A stretch of 64,000 nucleotides of DNA from a plasmid, in sequence record AP025670.1, one strand, 5' to 3'. The notes under the pieces were generated by a model. That model was not told the DNA's origin, did no database searches, and was given only the letters and a program-made list of their open reading frames with translations. The position numbers were made by a program, and so were the translations under genes. Shown here piece after piece: positions 14,615 to 57,441 of this stretch; within the stretch, counting starts at the first letter, position 1; the number at the start of each line of letters is the position of its first letter.

Positions 14615-14917
14615 TTAAACGGCAAAGCCGTAGTGGGTGCCGTCCGGAAGTTCAACATCGAGGCGTAGCTTGCCACCGGAGGCCTCAACGTACCGCTTAA
14701 TGGACGACAGCTTGAGATCTCGTCCAGGTTTTTCCATCTCGGAGACTGTCGGCTGTCTCACACCCAGAGATGCAGCAATTTCCCCCTGGGTAAGGTTCAT
14801 GCGATCACGAAGCTCTGCCAAGTGGATGTTCAGTAACATCTCAGTGGCCGCTTTCTGTGCTTTGGCAACAACCTCAGGCTTTTCTGTTGCCAGCATTTGG
14901 TCAAGAGTTCTTGCCAT
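14615..14917 (-). CDS. higA: HigA-like antitoxin (XRE-family HTH)
   Basis: 100 aa with HTH …LTQGEIAASLGVRQPTVSEME…; lies downstream of the toxin gene. Confidence 0.75.
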   Translation of the reverse strand: MARTLDQMLATEKPEVVAKAQKAATEMLLNIHLAELRDRMNLTQGEIAASLGVRQPTVSEMEKPGRDLKLSSIKRYVEASGGKLRLDVELPDGTHYGFAV

Positions 14918-14921
14918 AACG

Positions 14922-15272
14922 TCACTCCTTCTTCAATTTATCCAAGTGCGCCGCAAACTCACGGTCTGCAATTGGGATCATTACTTCATAAAACCTTTTC
15001 TCGTCCCCGGTCTTGTTACCGGCGCAGAGAAGAATCCCCTTACGCTTTGGATCGAACGCAAAGAACGCTCTGATAGGATCTCCTTTGCTTTGGACCCGAA
15101 GCTCTTTCATGTTGCTGTAGGATGAACCGTTAACAGTATCCGCGTATGGCCTCGACAGCATGGGGCCTCTATCTCGCAGCACCATCATCGAAGCCAGCAC
15201 GTTTGCTCTATCGGTATCATCCAGAGCATCGAACCACTCATCAAAGGTGTCGGTTGTCTCGATGACCCACAT
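14922..15272 (-). CDS. higB: HigB-like toxin (RelE/ParE superfamily addiction-module killer)
   Basis: 116 aa; the toxin-first, 4-bp-spaced gene pair is typical of higBA. Confidence 0.7.
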   Translation of the reverse strand: MWVIETTDTFDEWFDALDDTDRANVLASMMVLRDRGPMLSRPYADTVNGSSYSNMKELRVQSKGDPIRAFFAFDPKRKGILLCAGNKTGDEKRFYEVMIPIADREFAAHLDKLKKE

Positions 15273-15367: not shown

Positions 15368-15423
15368 AGTCATGTGACTAAAATAGGGGGTAGAATAAGC
15401 CTCGATATAGTCATGTGACTAAA
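15368..15423. promoter_or_regulatory. Two copies of TAGTCATGTGACTAAAA (palindrome AGTCATGTGACT) in the divergent higB / 15435 promoter region
   Basis: Direct repeat of a 12-bp perfect palindrome spaced 39 bp; a plausible HigA or other repressor operator. Confidence 0.45.
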
Positions 15424-15434
15424 AGGTGTCCTGA

Positions 15435-15983
15435 ATGAACAACCTGCCCCTACTGCTCGATGCAAGAGAAGCCATTGACTACTACCACCAGCATCCAGGC
15501 ATGACTGATGCAGAAAAGGCCTATGTGGTCGCGTTCCTAAGCGGAGAGGGGCGTTCAAACAGTCAGATCAGAGAGGATCTGGGTATTGAGAAGGTCTATA
15601 CGGTTACACACCTGAAACGCGCCGGTACGCTATCGGAGGAAGAGCTAACACTCTGGCTCAGAAATCCACGCAAGATCACCCTGGGGCATGTGAGGGCCGT
15701 GGCTAAGTTACCTTTCAGCAAGAGAGAAAAGCTCCTGAGGGATCTCCTGCATACCAGGACACCGGTTCATAAATTTGAGGCGATAGCGAAGGGCAAAGAA
15801 GTGGACAGGGATGCAGACATTAAGCGCCTGGAGACCCTGATGAGCGATGCTACGGGTAGGCCTATCAAAGTTCGCTATAACCCCGCGAAGCGCTCCGGGG
15901 AACTGACGCTGGGATTCTTCACGCTCGATGACCTGGATGACGTGTGCAAGGCTTTGGGGTTTGATCCAAGCGAGCAGATGTAA
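15435..15983 (+). CDS. Hypothetical protein, possible DNA-binding
   Basis: 182-aa ORF. Confidence 0.5.
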   Translation: MNNLPLLLDAREAIDYYHQHPGMTDAEKAYVVAFLSGEGRSNSQIREDLGIEKVYTVTHLKRAGTLSEEELTLWLRNPRKITLGHVRAVAKLPFSKREKLLRDLLHTRTPVHKFEAIAKGKEVDRDADIKRLETLMSDATGRPIKVRYNPAKRSGELTLGFFTLDDLDDVCKALGFDPSEQM

Positions 15984-15992
15984 ACCAGAAAA

Positions 15993-16008
15993 CTTTCACA
16001 TGTGAAAG
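15993..16008. promoter_or_regulatory. Palindrome CTTTCACATGTGAAAG (copy 5)
   Basis: Exact copy after the stop; 23 bp upstream of IR operator 16031. Confidence 0.6.
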
Positions 16009-16030
16009 TCTTGCAAGGTGTCTTTTTATT

Positions 16031-16060
16031 GTTTACAGTATCATAAAATGAATCTGTAAA
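16031..16060. promoter_or_regulatory. IR operator family member (GTTTACAGTATCATAAAATGAATCTGTAAA)
   Basis: Same dyad family; upstream of the 16073 gene. Confidence 0.55.
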
Positions 16061-16072
16061 GGTGCGCGATGA

Positions 16073-16324
16073 ATGTGCTTCCAACGAAAAGCTGGCCTTG
16101 GGCGTTATAACTCAACCAGACCTGAGTGGCTGGCGGCGTACCGAAACGCAAGATGTATGAGAAGCTCAGGTAAAGAACCTGATGCTTCTCTTTCCGGGAT
16201 AGCTTGGAAGGCGCAACTCATTGTTGCCCATGAAAGAGGCAGAATTGACAGCCTGGCTGTCCCTTTGGATGCCAGATTGATAGCAAAGAACCTCATCGAC
16301 GAGATCCTTGCTGAGGAGAACTGA
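16073..16324 (+). CDS. Small hypothetical protein
   Basis: 83-aa ORF. Confidence 0.35.
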   Translation: MCFQRKAGLGRYNSTRPEWLAAYRNARCMRSSGKEPDASLSGIAWKAQLIVAHERGRIDSLAVPLDARLIAKNLIDEILAEEN

Positions 16325-16518
16325 TGGACGAAAAAATTACCTACGAAGAAATGCTTGAACAACTCGACCAGAAAGGCATCCGCGTCACCAACGGGGCGAG
16401 ACGGCTTTATGTCGCGTTGAACAACGGAGTCAAAGCTGAGGTGCTGGGTAACTGCGGTCCCGCCACAATCAGCTTGGTTGACGGGATGATTGTTGTGGAA
16501 GAGCAGACTCTCCACTAA
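16324..16518 (+). CDS. Small hypothetical protein
   Basis: 64 aa, ATGA coupling. Confidence 0.4.
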   Translation: MDEKITYEEMLEQLDQKGIRVTNGARRLYVALNNGVKAEVLGNCGPATISLVDGMIVVEEQTLH

Positions 16519-16528
16519 GGGCAGCAGC

Positions 16529-16900
16529 ATGGGCAAAAAAGTACACATCATTTGTGGAAAGTGCGGCAGTGACGAGATGAACTTTGTCATCAATGAACAC
16601 TGTCCAGACGATCCCCAGAATGTTGCCAGTATGTCCTGCTCAAATTGTTGCGAACTGACAGGCATAGTCGAGTGGTCGGAATTTAATGGACGTGAGCTGA
16701 AAGGTGAAGCCGTCGCCCTATCAACACCGGCAAACGTGAATGCTCTTCTAGGATTGCTTCGCCAGGCGATGGACAGCGTTGAGTATCGCCTCTATGGCGG
16801 GGGCATGTCATTGAGCGGTAATGATGCTGCCGAACTCATAGACCTCCAGGAGCGAGCTGAGAAGGTCTTGTCTGTTCTTCGGAGTGATCAGCATGAGTGA
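16529..16900 (+). CDS. Zinc-ribbon protein (CxxC…CxxCC)
   Basis: 123 aa from ATG 16529; CGKCGS … CSNCC. Confidence 0.5.
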   Translation: MGKKVHIICGKCGSDEMNFVINEHCPDDPQNVASMSCSNCCELTGIVEWSEFNGRELKGEAVALSTPANVNALLGLLRQAMDSVEYRLYGGGMSLSGNDAAELIDLQERAEKVLSVLRSDQHE

Positions 16901-17363
16901 TTTATACGAACCGCTTGAGTTTGTGTTCTGCGGCTTTAGGAAAGGGGACGCTGGGCTCTTTATCTCGGTAGCCACTTTGCGCGATGGTGTTTTAGGCCGT
17001 GAGATGTATTTCTCAAAGGGAAAAAGCAAAAGGCGCTGGGTTGTCGGTGGCATTTACTCAGGGGCCTCGTTTTCGGACAACGGAGCAAAAGGTCTGGATG
17101 ATGCTCATTACGTTAAAGCATGGGAAGTGCAAGGCGACAAGATAGAGTGGCAAGCAAAAAGCGAGCAAGCCGAAGCCTTGGCGCGAAGCGAGAAACTTGA
17201 AGCCGACGATAGGAAGCGCAATGAACTCGAAGAGCTGATGCTACCCATCAGGAAGCAATATGGGGCATTAACAAAGCGACGTGATAGGGCAGGGGCCGCA
17301 GCTCTTGAAGAAGCTGTCCTGAGAGCGCTGAGAGCGCCCATCAGGAAGGCTGAGGAGAAATAA
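16893..17363 (+). CDS. Hypothetical protein
   Basis: 156 aa from ATG 16893 (GGAG RBS), overlapping the upstream stop. Confidence 0.5.
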   Translation: MSDLYEPLEFVFCGFRKGDAGLFISVATLRDGVLGREMYFSKGKSKRRWVVGGIYSGASFSDNGAKGLDDAHYVKAWEVQGDKIEWQAKSEQAEALARSEKLEADDRKRNELEELMLPIRKQYGALTKRRDRAGAAALEEAVLRALRAPIRKAEEK

Positions 17364-17377
17364 CCGTGGAGCCAGTC

Positions 17378-17719
17378 TTAGCTAAAGCATTCGCCGCTTT
17401 TAAAGTCGTAGCTGTAAGTACCCATCAGATTGGCTTTTCGGCTTTTCTTGCCATTGGTGTTTGCTGGCGCTTTAGGGGTCGCAAGTACGCCATAGAACAG
17501 GATACCAACAAGTGCCGCTTGCCACGCGAAAACAGCAACCAGAATCCAAAAAGCAGCAGCCAGAACCGGCAGTTTGTGCAGAAGGTTGAGCACCGGCTTG
17601 ACCCAAATCACTGCCGGGATAGCCAGCACTGCGTAACCCCAGTTGGTGGCCTCAAGCATAGCCAGGCCAAGAACAACAACAGCCATCAGCGCGATATTCA
17701 GTACATGTTTCATGGTCAT
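17378..17719 (-). CDS. Small integral membrane protein
   Basis: 113 aa, 3-4 TM helices; the only minus-strand gene in this block. Confidence 0.5.
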   Translation of the reverse strand: MTMKHVLNIALMAVVVLGLAMLEATNWGYAVLAIPAVIWVKPVLNLLHKLPVLAAAFWILVAVFAWQAALVGILFYGVLATPKAPANTNGKKSRKANLMGTYSYDFKSGECFS

Positions 17720-17751
17720 CTCTCCTTTTCAACTTACACTTTTATCCTATC

Positions 17752-17779
17752 ACAGTATTAAAAAATGCAACTGTGAAAG
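17752..17779. promoter_or_regulatory. IR operator family member (TCACAGTATTAAAAAATGCAACTGTGAA)
   Basis: Dyad ACAGTAT…ACTGT upstream of 17810. Confidence 0.45.
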
Positions 17780-17809
17780 GGCGTTTTTCATTCAAAAAGA
17801 GGTGACACT

Positions 17810-18298
17810 TTGAGTGCAATTATCAGCAAGTGCGGCATGTACAGATACCGTCTGGAAAGGGATGTGCAACCCGAAGGCCTTGTGTTCGGTTATTTTGGTG
17901 TAAACGGCTCTACGGCCACGGCCACCGAGGACGATCACACGGTCAGAAAGTGGATAGGGTTTACTAAGGTCAACGGAGGGAGGCGATTCATAGTCGGTAA
18001 TGCTTTTGCTTTTCGGGCGACCGACGTTCGAGAGCTGGCTACGGCGGTTGATCCTGTCGGGCCTGAAAATGAAATCCACTTGGAAAGGATTATTCGGGAT
18101 GCTGATGTCTTGGTGCCCTGCTGGGGGAGCCGAACTAAGTTGCCTAAGTCTTTGCATGTTCATTTGGACAGGCTTTTAGAGCAGCTCGTTGCATCTGGGA
18201 AGCCGGTATTGGCATTTGGCGTGACTGGTTCGGGGGACCCGAAGCACCCACTAATGCTTGGATATTCGACAAAACTTGTGCCCTGGGGAGGAAAATAA
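17810..18298 (+). CDS. DUF1643-like protein (TTG start)
   Basis: N-terminal C-GMYRY-L-R motif as I recall for DUF1643; RBS AGAGG. Confidence 0.55.
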   Translation: MSAIISKCGMYRYRLERDVQPEGLVFGYFGVNGSTATATEDDHTVRKWIGFTKVNGGRRFIVGNAFAFRATDVRELATAVDPVGPENEIHLERIIRDADVLVPCWGSRTKLPKSLHVHLDRLLEQLVASGKPVLAFGVTGSGDPKHPLMLGYSTKLVPWGGK

Positions 18299-18300
18299 TT

Positions 18301-18798
18301 ATGTCGATGCTTGAAGCACGTTACTTCGTGGCAAAGATAAGCGATGCACAGGCCGTGCTCTGCGATGAGGAGCTGGCGACACTGGAAAGGCTGATCCGGA
18401 AGGTTGATGATGGCCGCAGAGCAAATGGCAAGAGCTCGCTTACTTGCGTTGTTGTCGAAGAAGATTGGCCGAACTGGCAGCAAACGGTTGACTCTGTACT
18501 TTCACTTGCTGACGGGAAAGACAACGATTGGACCAATGCCACACCAGAACAAATCAAGGCCTTTTGGGTCGATGACTCAGTTTGGAAAACTCTGGATGGC
18601 CGGGATAAATGGATTGAAGATCTCGACCTGCTGGTGGACGGTTCCCCGGTGGCTTCTGAGTGGGAACCTTTTGGCTTGGAATCAGGGCAGTCTGTCGTCA
18701 TACGAGGCGGATGGATAGAAGGGAATGCCTTGAGTGATGATGGCGTACCGCTAGTGCAGGCATTCGTCGCTTGGAAACAGGGCCAAGACAACCACTAA
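18301..18798 (+). CDS. Hypothetical protein (acidic, Trp-rich)
   Basis: 165 aa, 3-bp spacing from the upstream gene; a terminator follows (18816-18846). Confidence 0.5.
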   Translation: MSMLEARYFVAKISDAQAVLCDEELATLERLIRKVDDGRRANGKSSLTCVVVEEDWPNWQQTVDSVLSLADGKDNDWTNATPEQIKAFWVDDSVWKTLDGRDKWIEDLDLLVDGSPVASEWEPFGLESGQSVVIRGGWIEGNALSDDGVPLVQAFVAWKQGQDNH

Positions 18799-18845
18799 AG
18801 GAAAATTACTTCGGAAGGGCGGCTATGGCCGCTTTCTTTTTAATA

Positions 18846-18872
18846 TTTACAGTATCACATAATGATACTATG
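18846..18872. promoter_or_regulatory. IR operator family member (TTTACAGTATCACATAATGATACTATG)
   Basis: Dyad family. Confidence 0.5.
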
Positions 18873-18901
18873 ATGTTGTTAATTTACTTGGGGAGGCGCT
18901 T

Positions 18902-19165
18902 ATGCTCACTGCTAAATGTATAGGGTGCGGATGCACCGATGATCACGCTTGTGTTGAAAACGGTCAACCGTGTCACTGGCTTCGCGTGAATAGAGTGGAA
19001 GGTATCGGGGTCTGCTCTTCGTGCCCGGATGCTCTCAATCAATTCGCATCGACCAGCCAGGAACAAGCAACTGGACAGGATGACTACCGGAACAGTCCAG
19101 AATGGAAGGATTTTTCATCACGCATTGGTAATGCACTATGCGGGGGCCGGAGCAAAGCAAAGTAA
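18902..19165 (+). CDS. Small Cys-rich protein
   Basis: 87 aa, CIGCGC…C…C…CSSC; a terminator follows (19170-19196). Confidence 0.5.
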   Translation: MLTAKCIGCGCTDDHACVENGQPCHWLRVNRVEGIGVCSSCPDALNQFASTSQEQATGQDDYRNSPEWKDFSSRIGNALCGGRSKAK

Positions 19166-19328
19166 GGTAAAAACGGCTATGCCGTTTTTTATTTGTCTAT
19201 TACGGCATCACATTATAAGCCTGTAAATGCTGAATCTGTAATTGCCCAAAATGGGCGTGAGCAGGGGCGGGGTGTGAGGTCGTTCTAAGGCAAAATACTT
19301 TGTACTGGCAGAACAAAGAAAGAATGAA

Positions 19329-19344
19329 CTTTCACATGTGAAAG
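19329..19344. promoter_or_regulatory. Palindrome CTTTCACATGTGAAAG (copy 6)
   Basis: Exact copy 16 bp upstream of ATG 19360. Confidence 0.6.
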
Positions 19345-19359
19345 TTTTTGGGGTACGGG

Positions 19360-20292
19360 ATGGAACAAGCAATTCAAAGTTACTTGGCTGACGACCGGCA
19401 ATATCAAGACAGGATTACCGCAGCTCTCAGCCAGGTTGAAGAGAAAGGTGCAGAGTACGAAGCTCTTTGCCAACAGCGTGCTCAGTTGGGGATCTGGCAA
19501 AAAATTATAACGTTCTGGCAGTTTCGTCGAGACATCGCCGTTATACGTTCAGCACTAAAAGGCCATAACAGCGATTTGCGGTATTTGCGCCGTGGGAGAG
19601 ACCAGCTCAAAGAGGGATTGGTTTCTCGGGCCGTGAAGCAAGCGATTGACGGTAGCCAGATTCTGGAACGAATCACCCAAGCTCAAGATAGGCTTGACGC
19701 CGCATCTCGACTCCACGAGAGCAACAAGCGACTGGTGGACATGGGGCAAAAAGCCTTACGTGAAATCAGTGAGGCCTCTTCCAGTGTTTCATCAGCACAA
19801 ACAATGGAGGTTCTCGACCTTGTGACTGACAACAAGGGCATTTCCGTCATGTCGTCGATGTCAAACTCCTCGGCCAGCAGTGAAATAGACGATGCGAAGA
19901 GAGCTGTGAAAGCCTTCGCAAATGCGCTGGGGGATCATCGTGACATTGTGGGTTCACTGCACCACTCAATGGCAACTGAGTTTATCGATCTGGGTATGGA
20001 CTTTGCCGGTTTGAATGATGGTTTCGACTTTGGGAGCGTCTTCTCGCTGTTCAGCTTGTCGTCTGCCAGTTCCTCTCTGGACAAAGTAGAGTCTCGCGTT
20101 GAATCTCTGATGCCAGATCTAAGACGAGCCGCCTCCAATTCGGCAGCAGAGTATGCCCGTGTTAACGAAGAGTTCTTTGGCCTAAAACAACAGGCCTGTT
20201 GCCAAGTGCGTGAGTTGCTGGTGACAAATGGTATAGACGTGTCAGTCAAGCGCGTTGAGTCCGCCGTGAACAGCTACAGAGTTGGAAGGTGA
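19360..20292 (+). CDS. Hypothetical coiled-coil protein
   Basis: 310 aa, Ser-rich segments. Confidence 0.5.
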   Translation: MEQAIQSYLADDRQYQDRITAALSQVEEKGAEYEALCQQRAQLGIWQKIITFWQFRRDIAVIRSALKGHNSDLRYLRRGRDQLKEGLVSRAVKQAIDGSQILERITQAQDRLDAASRLHESNKRLVDMGQKALREISEASSSVSSAQTMEVLDLVTDNKGISVMSSMSNSSASSEIDDAKRAVKAFANALGDHRDIVGSLHHSMATEFIDLGMDFAGLNDGFDFGSVFSLFSLSSASSSLDKVESRVESLMPDLRRAASNSAAEYARVNEEFFGLKQQACCQVRELLVTNGIDVSVKRVESAVNSYRVGR

Positions 20293-20293
20293 T

Positions 20294-20324
20294 ATTTACA
20301 GCATCATAAAATGAACTTATGATG
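20294..20324. promoter_or_regulatory. IR operator family member (ATTTACAGCATCATAAAATGAACTTATGATG)
   Basis: Dyad family, upstream of the AAA ATPase gene. Confidence 0.5.
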
Positions 20325-20365
20325 TGGAGTGATCAACAAGTCGAAATTTATTTAAAGGATAAGCG

Positions 20366-21829
20366 ATGAGCGATATTACACAGCAAATGGACAAACTTGA
20401 GATTCCAATCAAGTTGTCCTTTCCAGTCATCAACGTTAGCACTTTTGAGCTGGGCCGCGCAGAGAGCGTTTTCTCTGACATTGCAAAGAAAGTCGGCAAG
20501 CACTTTATTGTAATGCCATTCAAGAAGCTGCCTGATCCAGGCACGATGAAGGCAATGGTGGACGAGTCCAAGAAGTCCTCCAAAAACGGAGTTGTCGTGT
20601 TCGACACTTTCTTTTTCGACCGCCAACGTGCAAACCCGGAAACACTCCCAGCCCTCAAGTCATCACTGACCTATCTGGAGAATGAGGGGATCAACTACAT
20701 CATCGCTGGCAAAGACGTCTTCAATGAAGAGTTCGTTTATCACATCGATCTCCCGGCTATGAGCAATCAGGAAATCCTGAAACTGCTCCAGACCTGTGAA
20801 GATAACGTGAAAGATGGTGGAGTCTTCGAGAGCAACGAACGTGCTGTCATCGCAAACCACGCCTTGGGCTTGTCACACACCCAGATGAAGAACGTCTTCA
20901 CCTACTCCGCTTACTTGAAATTCAAGGGTGAAGAATACCTGGGCGAGATCCGAAAAGAAAAAGCTCACATCTTGCGTGATGTCGGCCTCGATGTGCTTGA
21001 GGCCATTGATATTGGGAATGTCGGTGGTCTCGAAAACCTCAAGGAGTTCCTCCAGATACGTAAAGCCGGTTGGGACAAAGACCTTCCGGTAAAAGGTGTC
21101 CTTCTGGCCGGTGTACCTGGTGGTGGTAAATCGCTGACGGCAAAAGCCGCTGCCGGTGTACTTGGCACTACCTTGGTTCGCCTGGATATGGGCCGTTTCT
21201 ATAGCAAGTATCTCGGTGAAACCGAGCGCCAGTTCAATCGTGCATTGCAGACCATTGAGCAGATCGCACCCGTTGTTGTGTTGATTGACGAGATGGAGAA
21301 GTTTTTTGGTAATGCCGATGGCGAACACGAAGTATCCAAGCGCCTGCTGGGCTCTTTCCTCTACTGGCTTCAAGAGCGCAAGAAGAAGATCTTCATTGTG
21401 GCGACGGCCAACCGGGTTCAGTCGCTGCCTCCTGAATTGATGCGAGCTGGCCGCTGGGACCGAGCATTCTTCATTGATCTGCCAAGTGTGGCTGAGCGCC
21501 AGAAGATTTTTGAGATCCACCTCGCCAAGCAGAAGGCCAACATCGCCGCGTTCGATATGCCTACGCTACTTCGTACCACCGAGGGATACACCGGGGCAGA
21601 GATTGAACAGGCCGTCATTGACGCGATGTATCTGGCGAACGCTCAGGACAAAGAGCTCAACAATGAAGCGCTGGTGGATGCGGTCACTCGCATTACCCCG
21701 ACCAGTGAAACTCGCCGGGAAGACATCAACCAGATTCGCAGTTTGCGGGATCAAGGCTTCTATCCGGCCAATAACTTCGATGTTCAAGAGCAGAATGGCT
21801 CTGGACGCAAACTTGCCATCGAGGACTAA
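20366..21829 (+). CDS. AAA+ ATPase (classic AAA, FtsH/Cdc48-like C-terminal domain) with a ~230-aa N-terminal domain of unknown function
   Basis: Walker A GVPGGGKS, Walker B VVLIDEME, second region of homology …ATANRVQSLPPELMRAGRWDRAF…. Confidence 0.85.
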   Translation: MSDITQQMDKLEIPIKLSFPVINVSTFELGRAESVFSDIAKKVGKHFIVMPFKKLPDPGTMKAMVDESKKSSKNGVVVFDTFFFDRQRANPETLPALKSSLTYLENEGINYIIAGKDVFNEEFVYHIDLPAMSNQEILKLLQTCEDNVKDGGVFESNERAVIANHALGLSHTQMKNVFTYSAYLKFKGEEYLGEIRKEKAHILRDVGLDVLEAIDIGNVGGLENLKEFLQIRKAGWDKDLPVKGVLLAGVPGGGKSLTAKAAAGVLGTTLVRLDMGRFYSKYLGETERQFNRALQTIEQIAPVVVLIDEMEKFFGNADGEHEVSKRLLGSFLYWLQERKKKIFIVATANRVQSLPPELMRAGRWDRAFFIDLPSVAERQKIFEIHLAKQKANIAAFDMPTLLRTTEGYTGAEIEQAVIDAMYLANAQDKELNNEALVDAVTRITPTSETRREDINQIRSLRDQGFYPANNFDVQEQNGSGRKLAIED

Positions 21830-21975
21830 GCGATGGAGTGGATTTTTTGGACTGTTCTTGCTGTGTCATTGATATTCCACTCAGAAGTCAGCGACTTAAT
21901 CAATGCTCTAGCTGAGTGGGCTAGGGAGCGAGCAGGTGCGGCCAGGAGAGAGCATCAAAACGGCAGAGAGGAGAA

Positions 21976-22314
21976 TTGACCGTTATGTACAAACAAGACA
22001 TTGAGAAGGGGATTGAGCTGCTCAAGCTGTGCAGCAAACTCCAGTCAGAAAAAGATGGAGTGGATAGACCAGAGCCTCTGGTTATCGACAAGAGTAAGGT
22101 GCTGGACCAGTTCGCCCGAGACGTTTCCACATCGATCACCTACATGAGTTCGTTGTTCAAGCTCATCCCCATGATGGAAAACCTTACCGAGCTTGGCCGA
22201 AAGCTGGAGAAAGAAGGAAAGATCGAAGTTTCTCTCGGGCAAGACTATTCCATTGCCGCGCTTAACTTTGTTATGTCGGAACACGGCATGACACCCGAAA
22301 CAACTCAGGAGTGA
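21976..22314 (+). CDS. Hypothetical protein
   Basis: 112 aa; the start is uncertain (TTG 21976 or ATG 21985). Confidence 0.4.
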   Translation: MTVMYKQDIEKGIELLKLCSKLQSEKDGVDRPEPLVIDKSKVLDQFARDVSTSITYMSSLFKLIPMMENLTELGRKLEKEGKIEVSLGQDYSIAALNFVMSEHGMTPETTQE

Positions 22315-22318
22315 TGAG

Positions 22319-22711
22319 ATGAGCCATATCGTAAAAGGCAAGGTGCAGGTCGCCTACAAAGACAAAGAGCTGCTGTTGAAGGCTCTGGAGGGAGTTGGCG
22401 TCGTTGTTGAAAACGAAAAGCTGTACCGCGTGGGCGCTGGCTACACCTTCGAGAAATACCCGATTGTTCTGATCGACCAGAACAACAAGGAGCACCGGAT
22501 TGGCTACAAGGAAAAAAACGGTGTTTGGGAGCAGTACCAGGAAAACTACGGCTCTTATGGCCGCTGGACGCAGCAGGCAAGCAGCAAGGTGCAGGATCGC
22601 TACATTGCCTTCCACTACGAGCAACAGTTGAAAGAGGAAGGTTTCAGCGTGACGGTGAAGCAGCATCACGATGGCACTTTGGAACTGGAAGCTGAGGAAG
22701 CTGTTTGGTAA
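22319..22711 (+). CDS. DUF1257-like protein
   Basis: 130 aa; the N-terminus MSHIVKGKVQ…LLKALEGVG resembles the DUF1257 family signature as I recall it. Confidence 0.5.
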   Translation: MSHIVKGKVQVAYKDKELLLKALEGVGVVVENEKLYRVGAGYTFEKYPIVLIDQNNKEHRIGYKEKNGVWEQYQENYGSYGRWTQQASSKVQDRYIAFHYEQQLKEEGFSVTVKQHHDGTLELEAEEAVW

Positions 22712-22759
22712 TAGCGCCAAGGCAATCAGATTAGTTGAACTTAACGACGAGGTGACAAA

Positions 22760-22954
22760 GTGAAAAAGGTAAACATCAAGATCAAGGGCGGCAAGATTGC
22801 TGCCGATTTCACGGGGTTCCAGGGTAAGACCTGTGAAGCGCTGGAGCAGCGTATTCGCCCGGAAGAGCTTGAAGTCGAAGAAAAAGAGCTGAAACCCGAG
22901 TACCACTTCAATGCTGGTCAAACCCAGCACGAAACGGAACAGAACGAATGGTGA
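22760..22954 (+). CDS. DUF2997-like small protein (GTG start)
   Basis: 64 aa, MKKVNIKIKGGKI…FTGFQGKTCEALE, the pattern I associate with DUF2997. Confidence 0.45.
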   Translation: MKKVNIKIKGGKIAADFTGFQGKTCEALEQRIRPEELEVEEKELKPEYHFNAGQTQHETEQNEW

Positions 22955-24132
22955 TGAGAAGGACAGGGCGCGTCCCCCTTCTTTTGCTGGTTGGTCTCAT
23001 GGTCGCAGCTCCTGCGGCCTTTGCCAGTGACTTTGTGACTGGCGTAATGGTGGGGCAAATGCTCTCAGATGACTCAGGCAGCAAGAAGGCAGAAGACACA
23101 GGCCCGGAGAGTAAAACGGTCATTGATTACCATGAAGGTCAGCCGGTTGTGACCAAAGTGGAGGCCTTCAAAAGTAACAAATGGCGCAAGCTGGATGGCC
23201 CTCAGGGCGGCTATTTTGTTTGCCCAGGTGAATACCGTAGCTATTCGGGAAGGCTGCGTTGTCGCGTCCATGATGACGGGCTCAATGGTTTTATGGGCGG
23301 TATGACTGATGCTCAGGAGCTACCGCTTCAAGAAGCTCTGACCAAGTTGGAAGGTAAACCCATCTCCCTGCAAACCATTGAAGTCCACGGCAACAACCTG
23401 GCAGTCAAATACCAGTTAGCACCACCAGCACAAACGCACGTCAAAACTCAGGATCTGGGGGTGGTCAAGCAGGATGGTGAAACGCAGAAGTCTGCCAGTC
23501 AACAATCAGCGTCATCCACAGTGACTGCACCAAAGAGTGAACCTCCCAAGCAGATTAGTGCTGCACAAGACACCGACCGCAATACCAGTGCGTTTCAAAG
23601 TCCGTTCGAGGAGGTAAGTGACTCCATGATCGGTCTAATGGATAGCTCTTTCGTCAAAGTCATAGCGGGGTTGATGCTGGTGTTTGGGGTTGCTAGTGGA
23701 ATTATGAGGCAGAGCCCATCAGGAATTGTGATGGGGATAATGCCTGCAATTATGATCATGACCGCGCCAACGGTTATTCGTACCATGTTCGATACAGGCG
23801 CGGCCAGTACCAAGCCAGTGGAAGATAGCGGAAGCTCATTTCCTTTCTTCTTGGTGGCAATAGTGCCGGTGCTGATTTTCTTTGCCTATAGAGCTTTTAT
23901 GAACAACCGGAGCGACTCCGAAATTGATGAGTTGTTAAGAGAAGCCCGACGTGCTGAAAGGGCTGAACGACCAAGCAATGAGCCTCCCTCAGTGGATGAA
24001 CTCCGTGAGCGCCAGCAACAAAACCCAGAAAGAGAACCGGTGGTTGTCAGCTCATCAGCTCCGGCACCAAAGGTGCAAAAGGAAGAGCCAATCGAAGTAC
24101 AGCCAGGCAAGCGCAAAATTATTTTGGATTAG
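22948..24132 (+). CDS. Secreted/membrane protein with C-terminal KRKIILD tail
   Basis: Signal peptide, central TM hairpin, charged C-terminal region ending …QPGKRKIILD; its N-domain is paralogous to the 24488 product. Confidence 0.55.
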   Translation: MVMRRTGRVPLLLLVGLMVAAPAAFASDFVTGVMVGQMLSDDSGSKKAEDTGPESKTVIDYHEGQPVVTKVEAFKSNKWRKLDGPQGGYFVCPGEYRSYSGRLRCRVHDDGLNGFMGGMTDAQELPLQEALTKLEGKPISLQTIEVHGNNLAVKYQLAPPAQTHVKTQDLGVVKQDGETQKSASQQSASSTVTAPKSEPPKQISAAQDTDRNTSAFQSPFEEVSDSMIGLMDSSFVKVIAGLMLVFGVASGIMRQSPSGIVMGIMPAIMIMTAPTVIRTMFDTGAASTKPVEDSGSSFPFFLVAIVPVLIFFAYRAFMNNRSDSEIDELLREARRAERAERPSNEPPSVDELRERQQQNPEREPVVVSSSAPAPKVQKEEPIEVQPGKRKIILD

Positions 24133-24143
24133 TGGGGTAGGTT

Positions 24144-24491
24144 ATGAGCAAAAAGCGCATCGTAATCAAAAATGGTGAGGTCTGCGGGTTTGCCGATGAG
24201 GTTTCCTTCAAAGGCCTTGAAGTGCAGGAATACAGTAAAACAAGGGTTTCGCGCATCGTGCCGACGAGCGGCATTCTAATGATTGCGTTCTATGTTATTC
24301 GCGGACTTTGTTCAGACGAGTCAAAGATTGCGGCATGGACTCGTGTTTGGCGTTGCCAGTGGAAGGTGCTGATCGACGGTAAAAGCTATGGACCATTCAG
24401 CAGTCGTGCGGATGCTATCTCGTTCGAGAAGGACGAGATCTACAAACAAGGCAAATTCTTTGCCGATGCCACTCACGAGGCGGCAGTATGA
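24144..24491 (+). CDS. Hypothetical protein
   Basis: 115-aa ORF. Confidence 0.4.
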   Translation: MSKKRIVIKNGEVCGFADEVSFKGLEVQEYSKTRVSRIVPTSGILMIAFYVIRGLCSDESKIAAWTRVWRCQWKVLIDGKSYGPFSSRADAISFEKDEIYKQGKFFADATHEAAV

Positions 24492-24916
24492 TGACACGGG
24501 CGGCTATGGCCGCGCTGTTATCCGCGTTGGTAATAGGCCTTGTGTCTGATTTGTCCGCACAAGAGCTGGTGGTAAGCCAGGTGGCTATAGACAAGTCCAC
24601 TGAGGTGGAGAAAGAAGCTACCTTCCACAACCGCAAGTGGGTGTTAAGGACGGGGCAGGTTAGTGGATTCTTCATCTGCCAAGGAGATAACAAAGACATT
24701 TACTACCGGCATGACAGGGTGGGCGCTCACTGCCAGAAGACATCGACTGGGTGGCGCAATGTACTGGGTCTCAGGGACGATGTTCCGGAAGTTGAGCTGA
24801 GCGTGTACCTGGGGACCGTTGAAGGTGTCCCCGTGAAAGTCCTTCATCAGGAAGTGGATGGTTACGATCTGAAAGTGCAGTACAAGGTTGCACGTAAAGG
24901 GTCAGCAAATGAGTGA
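24488..24916 (+). CDS. Secreted protein, paralogous to the N-domain of the 22948 product
   Basis: Signal peptide; shared …KW-R-G…GFFICQGD / GYFVCPGE… segments. Confidence 0.5.
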   Translation: MMTRAAMAALLSALVIGLVSDLSAQELVVSQVAIDKSTEVEKEATFHNRKWVLRTGQVSGFFICQGDNKDIYYRHDRVGAHCQKTSTGWRNVLGLRDDVPEVELSVYLGTVEGVPVKVLHQEVDGYDLKVQYKVARKGSANE

Positions 24917-25472
24917 GAGTGTGCGTCGGTCAACGCCGATGGTAAAGATTAAAGTCCTGCCGAGTTTCGTAGGGGTTCCCTTCCCGTCGGTGCTACTTAT
25001 CGTTGCGGGGCTCCTTAATGGCCCTTTGTGGGGCTTTGCCGCATTCGTCTTTCATATCGTCATCAAGCGGTACATCTACAGAGAATACCGGAGGTTGCCA
25101 TATCCGATGCCAACCGGCTCAAGGCCTATGGATGAGTTGAGCGAGCTCCTTGTAAAGGGGATACCGGAGGAATTTTTCCGGCGGCTTGACGCAGCTTGCA
25201 GCTCTGATGCGTCAGTACAAATAACCTGCCCAAAGAAATACCGGATGCTCAAAATGTCGTTGAATCGCTATGCCAACCGCGCTGGTTGTTACCCGCAGTT
25301 CCGGGAGGGGGATGAAATAGCGATTGAGGTAACAGAGCAGAGACCAAGAAAAGCAGGAGCAGGGAAGGGCTTTCCAAGTATTCAAGATCTGAAAGCGTCA
25401 GAGGGTGTTCTGAGTGAACCGGAGCAGCCTATCGAAATTCAGAAAGATAAGCGCAAGATTATCTTGGATTGA
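24909..25472 (+). CDS. Membrane protein with C-terminal KRKIILD tail
   Basis: 2 TM helices then a cytoplasmic domain ending …QKDKRKIILD. Confidence 0.5.
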   Translation: MSESVRRSTPMVKIKVLPSFVGVPFPSVLLIVAGLLNGPLWGFAAFVFHIVIKRYIYREYRRLPYPMPTGSRPMDELSELLVKGIPEEFFRRLDAACSSDASVQITCPKKYRMLKMSLNRYANRAGCYPQFREGDEIAIEVTEQRPRKAGAGKGFPSIQDLKASEGVLSEPEQPIEIQKDKRKIILD

Positions 25473-25483
25473 GGTGGGTTGGA

Positions 25484-26053
25484 ATGCGGTCATTTTTATA
25501 CAGAATATTGCTTCTTTGCTTCGTCATTATCGTCCAGATAGGGCTAATCGCCATTGATGCGAGCCCGTTGGTTGTTGCTATGTTCCTCTCGCTAACAGCT
25601 TTAGTCGCTGGGGTCTGGATGGCGTACCTTCATTCCCGATTTTTGATGGCGGTGACTCCAGTAGTTATCTCTGTGCTAATGGCGACCCTCGCCATGAAAA
25701 TGTTTGAGCCGAGACTCTTTGTTTCTGCCAGCGAAAAAGGCTGGTTCCCTTTGTCATTGTTCGTCTCGATACCGTTTTACTTCTACTTGAGTTACTTGCT
25801 TGAGATAGAGGAGAAGAGACGTACATTCCGGGCCAATGTGATTGGGTTTTTGCGTGGAGTTTCGGAAGAGATCCGTCGTTCAACCAGAGAGCATAGAGAT
25901 CAAGGTGAGATAAGACACGGTGGAACAGAGCTGGGGAGTATTGACGAACTACAAAGGGGCGAGGCCAAAGAGCCAGAAGTCATCAGCTCTACATCGGACC
26001 AGAAAGAACAAGGCACTCCCAAGCGAGACAAGAGAAAAATCATTCTGGACTGA
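25484..26053 (+). CDS. Polytopic membrane protein with C-terminal KRKIILD tail
   Basis: 4 TM helices, ends …KRDKRKIILD. Confidence 0.5.
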   Translation: MRSFLYRILLLCFVIIVQIGLIAIDASPLVVAMFLSLTALVAGVWMAYLHSRFLMAVTPVVISVLMATLAMKMFEPRLFVSASEKGWFPLSLFVSIPFYFYLSYLLEIEEKRRTFRANVIGFLRGVSEEIRRSTREHRDQGEIRHGGTELGSIDELQRGEAKEPEVISSTSDQKEQGTPKRDKRKIILD

Positions 26054-26055
26054 AC

Positions 26056-26601
26056 ATGGAACAAATCAGAAAAGGCTTAACCCTCGAATACGCAAAAGAG
26101 AAGCGTGAGAAGCTCTTGGCGGAGCTCAAATCAGATGAACACTACAGCCAGACTGAAACAGTAGCCTATGGGCACCACGACCCGCTCAGCGTTCCTGTGG
26201 CAGCCTGCGATAGTTGTCATGGCCGGGCGCAAATGCAGAAGGTTATAGGTCCTCCTGTGCGCTGGAATATGGTCTGCCTGGGTTGTGGGAAGGCGATCCA
26301 GCAAATCCAGAAACGACCGTGGCAAGCAGCAATGGCGTGGAACCAAATTAACTTGGGAACACAGGACTACAGACAACTGCCCCTCTTTGGACTTGGGAGT
26401 CTGTCTCCTGAATCAGCAAGACAGAGAATGGTGGGAATACGCAGAAACCTGGAGCTGAGAAAGAGCCTCGCCGGTATCGAGAGGACGATAGCCCACAAGG
26501 AAGGTCAACGCCCACCAGGGAAAGAGTACCAGCAACGACTGGAAGCATATCTGCAATGGGCCATGCTGGCGCTGAGGTTGCTCAAAGTCAAAACAAGTTA
26601 G
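26056..26601 (+). CDS. Zinc-ribbon protein
   Basis: 181 aa, CDSCHG…CLGCG; a terminator follows (26622-26650). Confidence 0.5.
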   Translation: MEQIRKGLTLEYAKEKREKLLAELKSDEHYSQTETVAYGHHDPLSVPVAACDSCHGRAQMQKVIGPPVRWNMVCLGCGKAIQQIQKRPWQAAMAWNQINLGTQDYRQLPLFGLGSLSPESARQRMVGIRRNLELRKSLAGIERTIAHKEGQRPPGKEYQQRLEAYLQWAMLALRLLKVKTS

Positions 26602-26658
26602 TGGTGAGAAGGAAGAGAGAACCCGGTACTGTAAAGCGCCGGGTTTTTTATGCCGCCC

Positions 26659-26689
26659 TGTTTACAGTATCAAAAAGTGATGCTATAAA
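26659..26689. promoter_or_regulatory. IR operator family member (TGTTTACAGTATCAAAAAGTGATGCTATAAA)
   Basis: Dyad family upstream of the ParB-like gene. Confidence 0.5.
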
Positions 26690-26717
26690 GTGAGCAAGTC
26701 ACAAGGAGAACCAACGA

Positions 26718-27656
26718 ATGGCTGTTATCAACTCACTCCGCGCTCTCAAAGGCGTAACCGCCCCCGAAGAACTGAAAAAAGGGGATGGATTCACTATCTC
26801 TCCTCAGCTTCTGCTGGAGGAAGAAGGGTTTAACACCCGTGGCGCTTTCTGCGAGAACTACTACGAGCGCCCGGACATCAAAGCTGGTATTCGAGTGCTG
26901 GCCGATGCTTACAAGCGTGGCGACTATGTTCCGCCGATCATCGTCAAAGTTATCGACGGAAAGGTGTATGTCCGTGAAGGTCATCGCCGTCGCCGCGCCA
27001 TCCTGCTTGCTATCGAGGAAGGTGCCGACATCCAGTTCGTGCAGGTCGTAGAGCACAAGGGCGATGAAGCCGAACAGAGCCTTCTGATCGCCACCAGCAA
27101 CGATGGGCTCCCTCTTTCTCCACTTGAGCGAGCCGTGATCTACGCTCGGCTTGCAAACTGGGGGTGGAGCGACCAGATGATTGCCCAACGTGTTGGCCGC
27201 TCGGCTGAGCACGTTCGTATCGCCCGTGCCCTTCTGGAGATGCCTCTGGAACTGAAACGGATGATTCAGGAAGGCTCTGTGGCTGCCACCTACGCTCAGG
27301 AGCTCTACAACGAGCACGGCACCAACGCTGTTGAGATCCTGAAAAAGGCGCAGGAAGAACAGGCCAATGGCAATGACGGCAAGAAGGCCCCGAAAAAACT
27401 GACCAAAAAGTCTGTCGAGAAAGGTCCCCGCCTGGGCAAAAAGGTGGTTGAAGCCATGCACCGAGGCGTGAGCTCTATTACCAGTCGTCTGGACAACATC
27501 AAGCCGAACGATGACGGTGAAACGTTCACCCTTACCCTGAGCCGGGAAGATGTTGATGCGTTTCAGGAGCTGAAAGCCAAGCTGGCGGAGCTGGAGCCCA
27601 AAACTGACGAGTCCAATGAAGACCAGCAAGAGCTGGATTTGGCGGGTAATCAGTAA
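26718..27656 (+). CDS. ParB/Srx-domain protein (ParB-like nuclease domain; KorB/ParB paralogue)
   Basis: ParB box II-like GHRRRRA; 312 aa; lysine-rich linker. Confidence 0.7.
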   Translation: MAVINSLRALKGVTAPEELKKGDGFTISPQLLLEEEGFNTRGAFCENYYERPDIKAGIRVLADAYKRGDYVPPIIVKVIDGKVYVREGHRRRRAILLAIEEGADIQFVQVVEHKGDEAEQSLLIATSNDGLPLSPLERAVIYARLANWGWSDQMIAQRVGRSAEHVRIARALLEMPLELKRMIQEGSVAATYAQELYNEHGTNAVEILKKAQEEQANGNDGKKAPKKLTKKSVEKGPRLGKKVVEAMHRGVSSITSRLDNIKPNDDGETFTLTLSREDVDAFQELKAKLAELEPKTDESNEDQQELDLAGNQ

Positions 27657-27853
27657 TGGGGCGCTGTACTGTTGAGGATGCCATCCAGTTGCTGGAAGGG
27701 GGAACCATTGTTGCGGTCGTACCGGCGTCATCCGGACCAGATACGCTGGTGGTTTCCTCTATCAGGCTTGAATCCGGACTGACAGTACAGTTTTCCCCTC
27801 CAGCGGCAGCCAGTGTCAGTGTTCAGCTCGCGGAGATCGATGATGAACAGTGA
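27656..27853 (+). CDS. Small hypothetical protein
   Basis: 65-aa ORF coupled to the upstream stop. Confidence 0.3.
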   Translation: MGRCTVEDAIQLLEGGTIVAVVPASSGPDTLVVSSIRLESGLTVQFSPPAAASVSVQLAEIDDEQ

Positions 27854-28091
27854 CAAGAAATCGTCTGAACTAGCCAGGCTGAGGCGTCAGCATCAGCTAG
27901 TTTGCTCTGTCATCGCAGCCTTGCTCATCTGTGCAGGTATATATGGGACCGTTGCACGTTTGGGCTTCATCCTGATGGCGCCATTGTTTGTTATCGCCTT
28001 AGGTGTGTTAGTCGATGCGTTCCTGCCAAGGGTAAGTTGGTTCTTCTGTGTGCGGGACGTGAGAGACATATTTGGGTGGAGAAAACGATAG
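27840..28091 (+). CDS. Small membrane protein
   Basis: about 83 aa, 2 TM helices; contains a stray iteron-like sequence at about 27940. Confidence 0.35.
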   Translation: MMNSDKKSSELARLRRQHQLVCSVIAALLICAGIYGTVARLGFILMAPLFVIALGVLVDAFLPRVSWFFCVRDVRDIFGWRKR

Positions 28092-28333
28092 TGGCGAAGT
28101 TGAAGGTTTATGGCGGGATCACTTATGGGGCCGAGGGGCAGTTCAGAACTGTCGTTGCGGCCACAAGTAAGAGCAAGGCTGCTTCAATTCTGAATATCAC
28201 GATTTACCAGATGAATAGCTGGTGGACGGAGACTTTTAACAAGTACGAGGTCGAGGCGGCGATGTCTGAGCCGGGGGCTATTTTTTCAAAGCCTCTCGAT
28301 GGCAGAGGCCCATTTGTAAAGCAGGAAGGATAA
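28091..28333 (+). CDS. Small hypothetical protein (GTG start)
   Basis: The in-frame GTG overlaps the upstream TAG; the ORF-track version (27902) overlaps the previous gene. Confidence 0.3.
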   Translation: MAKLKVYGGITYGAEGQFRTVVAATSKSKAASILNITIYQMNSWWTETFNKYEVEAAMSEPGAIFSKPLDGRGPFVKQEG

Positions 28334-28335
28334 TT

Positions 28336-28698
28336 GTGAGAAGTGTTTTTGTATGGTTGAAGGCCGGGGCAATACTGGCTTTCCTATTCATCGGTATTGC
28401 TGGTGCTGTCAACCGGGTCTATTGGGTTAACAGCCAAGGTTTGAGCCAGGGGTCGATGTCATCCACATGGGTTAAAGAAAAGTTTGGCCTAGACCTTGGT
28501 GCAATGTGCCGTTATGACAAACCCCAGCATGTCGAGTTCAAAGTCCTTCCTGATCAGACAATCCAGTTCCGCTGCTCATGGTTTGAAGGTGGCGGATTAA
28601 CCTGGTGGCCTTTCTACACCGAGCATGATGTAAAGAGCGCCGAGGCGACCTCTGTGCTCAATGACATCTTCCAGGGTACGGAGGGGCATGATGAGTAG
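28336..28698 (+). CDS. Secreted hypothetical protein
   Basis: 120 aa, signal peptide, RBS AGGAAGGA, GTG start. Confidence 0.45.
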   Translation: MRSVFVWLKAGAILAFLFIGIAGAVNRVYWVNSQGLSQGSMSSTWVKEKFGLDLGAMCRYDKPQHVEFKVLPDQTIQFRCSWFEGGGLTWWPFYTEHDVKSAEATSVLNDIFQGTEGHDE

Positions 28699-29935: not shown

Positions 29936-29948
29936 GAGAACAATACCT

Positions 29949-30398
29949 ATGAGTTTAAGTTTTATCGCAAGAGTCTTGCGCCAATTGGCAATTATGTTTG
30001 TCCTCTCCGTGCTTATTATGGCCGGATATATCTACTATGCCGGTAAACAGCATCAGCAGGCAGCAATCAACTTTTGGGGTGATCAATACCAGCCTGATGC
30101 CATCTCGACGCAAATTGATTGGGGGTTTATCGGTAACTGGGTTATTCCTCGCGGGGGGCCAATTATTTCTCCGGGCATTGCTGGAGTGTGTCCCAATACA
30201 CCACTTCCCGTTGTGCCTCTTAAAATTGGTCCTGATGGCCGGGGTTACGTTCTCTGTGGTATTGGAAGTGAGGCTGTCGCTACCAGCTTTGATGTCAATG
30301 ACATCCAGGATGAAGAGATACGAAACACATTAAAAACGATGTTTGAGGAAGAATTTGAAAAAACTGGTAAGGGGGATAAATGGACGCTCAAGAACTGA
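29949..30398 (+). CDS. Secreted/membrane hypothetical protein
   Basis: 149 aa, N-terminal TM. Confidence 0.45.
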   Translation: MSLSFIARVLRQLAIMFVLSVLIMAGYIYYAGKQHQQAAINFWGDQYQPDAISTQIDWGFIGNWVIPRGGPIISPGIAGVCPNTPLPVVPLKIGPDGRGYVLCGIGSEAVATSFDVNDIQDEEIRNTLKTMFEEEFEKTGKGDKWTLKN

Positions 30399-34231: not shown

Positions 34232-34357
34232 TCTCCCCGCTGTCCACCTCGCACACTCCAAACGCCCAAATAACTTGTCTATCTGCCCAAAATGGGCGCG
34301 TAAGCGTCCGATAGAAAGTAATTGTTAGTGAGATATTGACTACACGGAATATGGCTA

Positions 34358-34388: not shown

Positions 34389-34397
34389 GTGATATGT

Positions 34398-57416: not shown

Positions 57417-57441
57417 AAGTTTAGCTTTGGAGGGTTTTAGC

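Follow-up and report, generated by a model that had tools for sequence, protein, structure and literature searches.

The stretch at positions 20294-22954 of a 64,000-nucleotide plasmid sequence (record AP025670.1; the whole stretch analysed is hereafter called the window) is an IncC plasmid's copy of a widespread gene set composed of a Ycf46-like ATPase, a DUF1257 protein and a DUF2997 protein. In the plasmid variant the set is extended by a protein of 115 amino acids (aa) and by membrane proteins that copy the C-terminal tail of the ATPase. By analogy with characterised AAA unfoldases, we propose with a probability of about 0.5 that the ATPase acts as an ATP-driven unfoldase on, or is docked to, these tail-bearing membrane proteins, and that the small proteins would be its cofactors. 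An earlier note on this DNA had drawn attention to the ATPase and the two small proteins as a conserved module, and the open reading frames (ORFs) that we found at 20294-22954 agree with its placement of the genes.

The ATPase described in that note as a classic AAA protein of 487 aa is indeed present, its residues 245-371 matching PF00004 well above the gathering score (97.1 bits against a cut-off of 21.2, E 1.4e-27) and being followed by AAA_lid_3. Walker A (GVPGGGKS), Walker B (VLIDEMEK), pore loop 1 (KYLGE), the sensor asparagine and the arginine fingers of the second region of homology (RAGRWD) were all found, and these key residues are invariant in an alignment of 21 sequences from plasmids, phages, bacteria and one archaeon. 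The classic-clade domain with intact motifs extends over residues ~240-470 and is predicted to be active; its closest solved relatives are VAT, p97/Cdc48, AFG2 and PAN/Rpt (E about 1e-45). The N-terminal domain of ~230 aa had been left unplaced, and structure prediction now identifies residues 1-232 as a degenerate AAA fold without Walker A, the model superposing on the AAA folds of classic-clade AAA+ unfoldases, and the protein is hence a Ycf46-like tandem AAA ATPase. In agreement with this, homology to relatives is full-length and collinear and includes the N-region with its AAA+ fold devoid of a P-loop: the ATPase is 33-39% identical over 92-98% of its length to archaeal, cyanobacterial and planctomycete proteins, and full-length homologues are encoded in cyanobacterial genomes including those of Prochlorococcus, Nostoc and Lyngbya. 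Relatives are labelled 'ycf46' or 'SpoVK/Ycf46/Vps4 family' in their source databases, among them a 54%-identical Vibrio relative named 'ycf46' in UniRef. The name Ycf46-like is therefore based on the labels of these relatives and on the full-length cyanobacterial homologues.

The two small genes follow with the gaps previously reported, 4 base pairs (bp) in front of the 130-aa frame and 48 bp, given earlier as ~50 bp, in front of the 64-aa frame. The 130-aa protein is a divergent DUF1257 protein, an assignment made by profile search only. Direct comparison with Pfam DUF1257 (PF06868, threshold 22.2 bits) yielded no match at E<=1 for this protein or for its Vibrio homologue, and its close family carries no Pfam annotation. 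A search of 1.8 billion representative proteins with a profile built from the 130-aa family found only 48 matches, of which the distant ones were full-length, and 9 of the 10 distant matches tested exceed the Pfam threshold for DUF1257. In the reverse direction, the 130-aa protein scored 69.8 bits against a hidden Markov model (HMM) of Pfam-positive DUF1257 proteins, the seeds of which were picked from its own matches, and hhalign aligned its family with archaeal DUF1257 over 108 collinear columns (E 3.5e-4, at a probability of only 37%). For the 64-aa protein the similarity to DUF2997 (PF11211) is direct and covers model positions 8-47 of 47 with E 2.9e-4 and 21.1 bits, just below the gathering score of 24.1. 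Moreover, it scores 21.4 bits against a DUF2997 HMM built without its own lineage, matches phrog_23133 (6e-4) and is named DUF2997 domain-containing by the Prokaryotic Genome Annotation Pipeline of NCBI. Its G-x-x-C and K-P-E-[YFW] motifs are common to Pfam-positive DUF2997 proteins of phages and archaea, and its size (about 65 aa) and location directly after the DUF1257 gene agree with this assignment. The earlier naming of both small proteins thus stands. Comparison of IncC with IncA plasmids gave low ratios of non-synonymous to synonymous substitution rates (dN/dS) for the ATPase (0.045), the 130-aa protein (0.079) and the 64-aa protein (0.053), indicating that all three are genuine genes on which purifying selection acts strongly.

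The C-termini of both small proteins consist of an acidic stretch and a final aromatic residue (...EEAVW in the 130-aa and ...EQNEW in the 64-aa protein); an alignment of 18 family sequences shows the terminal Trp to be invariant, and W, Y or F is the last residue in the relatives examined. These acidic-aromatic ends may constitute a second docking motif. Two further frames separate the ATPase gene from the DUF1257 gene, a 48-aa ORF and a 109-aa gene, and both are peculiar to IncC since every relative is without them. Of the 109-aa gene the IncA plasmid retains the last ~15 codons only, and in the related loci L004, L091, L092 and L093, from which it is absent, the ATPase gene is directly followed by the 130-135-aa gene.

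The set recurs far beyond IncC plasmids. In an Asgard archaeon, precomputed Pfam labels give the gene order DUF1257, DUF2997, ATPase, and Pseudomonas phage SM1 and Rhizobium phage L338C encode, one or two genes beyond the ATPase, DUF1257 and DUF2997 proteins that score above the Pfam thresholds. Among 80 genome loci with a Ycf46-like ATPase, 18 have at least one of the small genes within 6 kb and nine have both; these 18 belong to Cyanobacteriota, Planctomycetota, Verrucomicrobiota, Actinomycetota, Thermodesulfobacteriota and others. In every gammaproteobacterial mobile-element relative examined, the ATPase is 45-87% identical to that of IncC and its gene is directly followed by genes of 130-135 and 63-67 aa. 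The wide co-occurrence asserted in the earlier note was thus borne out for the Asgard archaeon, Planctomycetota, Actinomycetota, phages and mobile elements, but not for the cyanobacteria singled out there, which show the ATPase-DUF1257 pair: in six cyanobacterial genomes the DUF1257 gene lies directly downstream of the ATPase gene, and this is a pair and not the trio. No functional study of the module emerged from literature searches on DUF1257, DUF2997, Ycf46 and functional screens of IncC, in keeping with the earlier statement that no function had been assigned.

This distribution bears on whether the module could be an anti-phage or anti-plasmid defence system, in which the ATPase and the small proteins would sense infection and the tail-bearing membrane proteins would damage the membrane, leading to abortive infection. 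Its carriage on plasmids, on islands resembling integrative and conjugative elements (ICEs), as well as on prophage-like elements would fit such a role, as would a BrxR-like winged-helix-domain gene and nucleases near the Vibrio copy; membrane proteins are, moreover, common defence effectors. However, the trio is also found in phage genomes and viral contigs, and an Asgard archaeon and several bacterial phyla carry it chromosomally (the cyanobacteria as the pair) outside any defence-island context. The resemblance of the AAA domain to the PADLOC models of IetA and TRIP13 is confined to that domain, the other six proteins encoded at 19360-24132 gave nothing at E<=1 against PADLOC-DB 2.0, and the membrane partners, fast-evolving as they are, have no obviously toxic folds. 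We therefore consider a defence function improbable. The earlier note had taken an AAA+ ATPase next to small uncharacterised partners on a mobile element as a frequent signature of defence, anti-defence or addiction; this part did not hold up, as PADLOC recognised only the generic AAA domain and addiction is contradicted by the distribution described below, and a conflict-system role of the module is speculation.

The unit probably extends beyond the span of the earlier note and forms a single operon at 20366-26601, so that 20294-22954 would cover only its first third (Table 1). Genes within 20366-26601 lie close together, overlapping or separated by no more than 48 bp, and are flanked by two copies of an operator that we term D1. 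In the gammaproteobacterial mobile elements the unit always includes the 115-aa protein and one to four membrane proteins with the tail motif of the ATPase. Downstream of the trio, L004, L091, L092 and L093 encode copies of the 115-aa protein that are 45-60% identical, and each of the 21 metagenome loci of sufficient extent also has the gene; the protein has no Pfam match and its family is narrow. The 142-aa protein and the periplasmic domain of the 394-aa protein share the motifs G-x-F-x-C ... C and V-x-Y-x-[LV]. The 394-aa protein itself comprises a signal peptide, a periplasmic domain, a transmembrane (TM) hairpin resembling TraA pilin, a third TM segment and a disordered cytosolic C-region, and a 26%-identical homologue with the same tail is encoded in L091. 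A weak match to Lar_restr_allev, the restriction-alleviation protein Lar, was seen for the 181-aa protein (E 0.011). An Rfam scan of 18.5-27.8 kb detected no RNA family.

Table 1. Genes of the module and control elements in its surroundings, with positions in the window.
Feature	Position	Strand	Remarks
AcaCD-box-like 15-mer (19243-19257) and IncC parS (19325-19347)	19243-19347		Upstream of 310-aa gene; module membership uncertain
D1 operator and sigma70-like promoter TTTACA-17-TATGAT (20295-20323)	20284-20327		Overlapping; directly upstream of ATPase gene
Ycf46-like tandem AAA+ ATPase, 487 aa	20366-21829	+	PF00004 and AAA_lid_3; tail ...GRKLAIED
48-aa ORF, unannotated, coding doubtful	21833-21979	+	From ORF list; no family match; absent from IncA and all relatives
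109-aa gene, IncC-lineage insertion	21985-22314	+	Outside conserved core; no family match
Divergent DUF1257 (Ycf35-like) protein, 130 aa	22319-22711	+	4-bp gap; invariant MSHIV N-terminus; C-terminal Trp
DUF2997-like protein, 64 aa	22760-22954	+	GTG start; 48-bp gap; G-x-x-C and KPEY motifs; C-terminal Trp
Inner-membrane protein, 394 aa	22948-24132	+	Annotated as 377 aa from 22999; by hydropathy; ends ...GKRKIILD
115-aa protein, no known domain	24144-24491	+	Fourth conserved component of mobile-element module
Secreted protein, 142 aa	24488-24916	+	Signal peptide; BLAST paralogue of periplasmic domain of 394-aa protein
Membrane protein, 187 aa, TM hairpin	24909-25472	+	Cytosolic C-region ends ...DKRKIILD
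Polytopic membrane protein, 189 aa	25484-26053	+	Cytosolic C-region ends ...DKRKIILD; absent from IncA plasmid L200
181-aa protein, Cys4 zinc-ribbon-like motif	26056-26601	+	2-bp gap to preceding gene; last before D1 copy 26650-26693
D1 copies	3733-3776, 16021-16064, 17738-17781, 18835-18878, 19188-19231, 20284-20327, 26650-26693, 34348-34391		

What connects the ATPase with its membrane neighbours is a shared C-terminal tail of the form G-[RK]-[RKQ]-h-x-h-[DE], seen as ...GRKLAIED in the ATPase and as ...KRKIILD in the products of 22948-24132, 24909-25472 and 25484-26053. Within the window, 427 stop-to-stop ORFs reach 60 aa or more; the motif is restricted to four of these, all of them on the + strand at 20.3-26.1 kb. 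The pattern recurs in L004, L091, L092, L093, the IncA plasmid and 21 metagenome loci, and tails of ATPase and neighbours co-vary: Vibrio combines RQINLN with RKISLD/S, a Pseudomonas element has RQLTVD together with RKLHLD and RRLFID, and in IncA RKLAIGD is accompanied by KRKIILD. Of 1443 non-ATPase ORFs in mobile-element loci, 52 bear the strict tail, and 50 of these are encoded on the same strand as the ATPase; the corresponding counts are 0/3873 in genome loci and 2/5080 in viral loci. The tail-bearing proteins have signal peptides or TM segments and long low-complexity C-regions that are predicted to be cytosolic. They are fast-evolving (dN/dS 0.27-0.42; 26-77% identity), yet their last 7-8 residues are kept; the IncA orthologue of the 187-aa protein, for instance, retains the tail at 71% overall identity. 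As far as the literature on DUF1257, DUF2997, Ycf46 and IncC screens was searched, the shared tail is a new observation.

Isolated cases of a neighbour with an end similar to that of the ATPase were also seen in more distant loci. In Microbacterium (L041:7729-9441) and a rumen bacterium (L068:3431-4138), the neighbour carries a ComEA-like helix-hairpin-helix just before the tail, and in the Streptococcus satellite prophage Javan368 (L007:1625-5578) an ATPase ending in ...TRKVLV adjoins a 573-aa protein with two TM segments ending in ...NRKIKI. As the Javan368 locus has no DUF1257 or DUF2997 gene, a shared tail can occur without the small partners.

Characterised members of the classic clade such as p97, Vps4, FtsH, Msp1 and PAN are ATP-driven hexameric translocases that engage polypeptides. 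Since its closest solved relatives (p97/Cdc48, Vps4, FtsH, Msp1) work in this manner, the IncC ATPase would be expected to assemble into a hexameric ring and to pull polypeptides through its pore at the expense of ATP. The shared tail would then serve as a docking or address peptide, which either recruits the membrane proteins to the ATPase or anchors the latter at the membrane, and the DUF1257 and DUF2997 proteins could be dedicated cofactors, serving as adaptors or as the receptor of the tail. Such a machine might remodel, extract or turn over the envelope proteins of its own module. A more specific version, in which the tail is a portable address tag recognised by the Ycf46-type unfoldase together with DUF1257 and DUF2997 for the extraction or remodelling of inner-membrane proteins, we regard as tentative and rather doubtful.

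Several observations weigh against the unfoldase proposal as a whole. The topology of the tail proteins was assigned by hydropathy and the positive-inside rule only, and solved structures offer no informative relative of the DUF1257-like fold. In cellular genomes, the ATPase carries the tail in 8 of 18 loci with DUF1257/DUF2997 neighbours as compared to 1 of 59 without (Fisher p 1.6e-5), whereas in viral loci, in which tails are frequent whether or not small partners are detectable, the direction is opposite (6/37 with small partners and 13/35 without, p 0.06), and motif searches of the viral loci found no hidden small partners. A general rule that the tail tracks the presence of DUF1257/DUF2997 was consequently rejected, as it holds in genome loci and fails in viral loci; because the link was not replicated in viral contigs, the small proteins may not be the receptor of the tail. 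Finally, tail-bearing neighbours are rare outside the gammaproteobacterial mobile-element clade, and the idea of membrane clients may thus hold for that clade only.

The viral loci also raise the possibility that the unfoldase is an anti-defence or establishment factor, which would dismantle host proteins such as defence complexes or nucleoid proteins upon entry. Phages often carry Ycf46-like ATPases, with at least 469 stretches in IMG/VR; at least one of the small proteins is encoded in half of the distinct viral loci (37/73), and both are encoded in 25. On the plasmid side, the surrounding IncC backbone contains many methyltransferases and further genes of a host-evasion type, and IncC plasmids encode another AAA-type anti-restriction factor, vcrx089 (PMC7498323). 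The module shows, however, no homology to known anti-defence proteins, and the specific co-evolving tails on its own membrane proteins suggest internal rather than host clients. In addition, we infer that the ATPase gene is transcribed from an operator-controlled promoter of vegetative type and not from a single-strand promoter as is typical of leading-region genes. On balance, an anti-defence function appears unlikely to us, and action on the tail-bearing proteins of the module remains the preferred reading.

A role in conjugation has to be considered as well, since all tail bearers are envelope proteins and one of them resembles a pilin. Residues 218-280 of the 394-aa protein form a hairpin that is 29% identical to the TraA pilin of the plasmid itself (E 9e-9), and the protein reaches 46.8 bits against the NCBIfam TraA model (cut-off 50). 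The module could accordingly be imagined to control pilin-like and other envelope proteins and thereby pilus dynamics, mating-pair formation or exclusion, and an AcaCD-box-like 15-mer that is the same as a validated one lies 1.1 kb upstream, before a neighbouring gene. However, no pilin-like hairpin was seen among the tail proteins of related elements, and it was for this reason discarded as a general feature of such proteins. The promoter and operator of the ATPase gene are separate from the AcaCD box, and the trio occurs in organisms and phages without conjugation genes.

More directly, a core role in conjugation is weakened by plasmid pVCR94, in which the entire region is missing and which transfers nonetheless, at about 3.5e-3. 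According to its gene content, as rebuilt from published supplementary coordinates, a ~15-kb backbone block that includes the module (window ~15400-30300) is missing from pVCR94 and a sul2 insertion is found in its place, the gene order being vcrx028, sul2, vcrx030 (equivalent to window 30380-30691) and parA. An accessory function in conjugation is, in our view, quite unlikely. As pVCR94 has been used for most functional work, the existing transposon-insertion sequencing and chromatin immunoprecipitation (ChIP) data are silent on the module.

The window represents an IncC (IncA/C2) conjugative-plasmid backbone, and over positions 20294-22954 it shows 100% identity to pBML2537, a plasmid of Providencia. 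This stretch was matched in 584 PLSDB plasmids at 90-100% identity; among the 1051 PLSDB plasmids with an IncA/C repA, 584 (~56%) thus carry the module and 467 (~44%) miss it. Interruptions of the region by insertion sequences (ISs) are tolerated, as are natural deletions such as that of pVCR94. Because it is absent from pVCR94, which still transfers, and from ~44% of the repA-positive plasmids, the module is accessory, and it is dispensable for replication, partition and conjugation under laboratory conditions. The same two absences contradict an addiction module that would act by post-segregational killing. The arrangement of an ATPase with small proteins on a plasmid might recall such a system, but no tool result supports it and no similarity to toxin or antitoxin families was found; the deletions and IS interruptions are tolerated, and the backbone already has a HigBA-type system at 14615-15272. 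We regard addiction as close to refuted.

Elsewhere in the window, iteron-like direct repeats (TGGGnACGyTGCACG) lie downstream of repA at 1279-1985, with isolated copies at 3931-3981 and 27935-27965. Beyond ~48 kb (e.g., at 56389-58365) the window diverges from pBML2537 and contains transposase fragments and a sugar-kinase-like gene where pBML2537 has traA; GC content drops to 0.40 at 48-50 kb, consistent with an insertion.

Regarding the control of the unit, the earlier note had placed the ATPase gene behind its own copy of a recurring inverted-repeat operator, and this proved correct. The operator, D1, is a palindrome with 10-bp arms, ACAGTATCAT-n3-ATGATACTGT, within TTTACAG...CTGTGAA, and occurs in eight copies in the window where none is expected by chance. 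Each copy is located just upstream of a + strand gene or operon, and the one at vcrx036 is directly downstream of a published transcription start. D1 is probably the operator of a plasmid-wide regulator, and coordinated repression of the D1-bearing genes is a reasonable inference from the shared operator. At the copy in front of the ATPase gene, a unique local inverted repeat, CATCATAA-n7-TTATGATG, was found. Directly after the operon, and with its own D1 copy, a 312-aa second ParB-like protein is encoded at 26718-27656 (HTH_ParB 2.7e-8, weak KorB), which is a candidate regulator; the product of 15435-15983 is another candidate for the D1-binding protein.

The IncC parS palindrome was also tried as the recurring operator and rejected, as parS precedes the neighbouring 310-aa gene (19360-20292, directly upstream of the module) and the ATPase gene is fronted by D1. 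Binding of ParB to IncC parS sites has been reported (PMC10954446), and no parS was found between 19347 and 30797, which places the ATPase unit outside a ParB/parS (KorB-like) regulon. The 15-mer at 19243-19257, likewise in front of the 310-aa gene and not of the ATPase gene, is identical to the AcaCD box of vcrx036 (34284-34298) validated by ChIP with exonuclease digestion (ChIP-exo). Together with parS it would form an unreported AcaCD/ParB-controlled promoter at 19243-19347, judging from these sequence matches. Published AcaCD ChIP-exo and RNA-seq data come from pVCR94, which is without the region around 19243-19257, and the putative promoter of the 310-aa gene is therefore invisible in them.

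For plasmid biology, the module amounts to a 6-kb accessory operon in ~56% of IncA/C plasmids. The conservation of Ycf46, Ycf35/DUF1257 and DUF2997 extends from plastids and cyanobacteria to archaea and phages, their mechanism being unexplained, and the IncC copy offers tractable Enterobacteria as hosts, plasmids that spread carbapenemases and apparent built-in clients. Because the membrane neighbours share the tail of the ATPase, the function of the family becomes directly testable. Should the version with the tail as an address tag be true, an undescribed tail-directed machine for the quality control or regulation of membrane proteins would be carried by resistance plasmids, by ICE-like elements and, without the clients, by phages; one of its clients on IncC would be pilin-like, and a first mechanistic handle on Ycf46 and Ycf35 of cyanobacteria and plastids would be gained.

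Compared to the classic-clade unfoldases (p97/Cdc48/VAT, Vps4, FtsH, Msp1/ATAD1, PAN), the IncC ATPase has the same Walker A and B motifs, K-[YW]-[LV]-G-E pore loop and arginine fingers, and a two-tier arrangement with one inactive ring, as its degenerate N-terminal domain may recall, occurs in several type II AAA proteins. On the other hand, it lacks the N-domain of p97, the MIT domain of Vps4, the N-domain of PAN, a protease domain and a TM anchor, and DUF1257 and DUF2997 are unrelated to the known cofactors of these unfoldases. Shared C-terminal docking peptides are known from proteasome activators (HbYX) and from Hsp70/Hsp90 (EEVD), and as in those systems several different proteins of the IncC module end in one short peptide. 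The motif of the module differs from both in being basic-basic-h-x-h-acidic, and a docking role may be suggested by this analogy. To IetAS the likeness consists of AAA-domain matches to IetA in PADLOC (6.3e-21) and to NCBIfam IteA (4.2e-18, far below the 510-bit cut-off); these cover the generic AAA domain only (residues 243-462), and, unlike IetAS, the module has no IetS-like protease and a different N-domain and partners.

The Ycf46-like ATPases of phages (SM1 gp026, L338C gp050 and mycobacteriophage Corndog gp96), annotated as being of unknown function, are 28-31% identical to the IncC ATPase, which matches phrog_8638 at 3e-81, whereas their loci have no tail-bearing neighbours and no 115-aa protein. 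In cyanobacteria, a DUF2997-DUF1257(ycf35)-fed7 cluster is on record (PMC4284462), and reports tie ycf46 to stress and CO2 phenotypes, although the mechanism of the cyanobacterial proteins is not known. In comparison with the cyanobacterial Ycf46 loci, in which the 115-aa protein and the tail-bearing membrane proteins of IncC were not found, the IncC set is plasmid-borne, its small proteins score below the Pfam thresholds and no ferredoxin gene lies nearby. What the IncC ATPase has in common with cyanobacterial Ycf46 is full-length collinearity, including the degenerate N-terminal AAA domain, at 30-39% identity to the cyanobacterial proteins.

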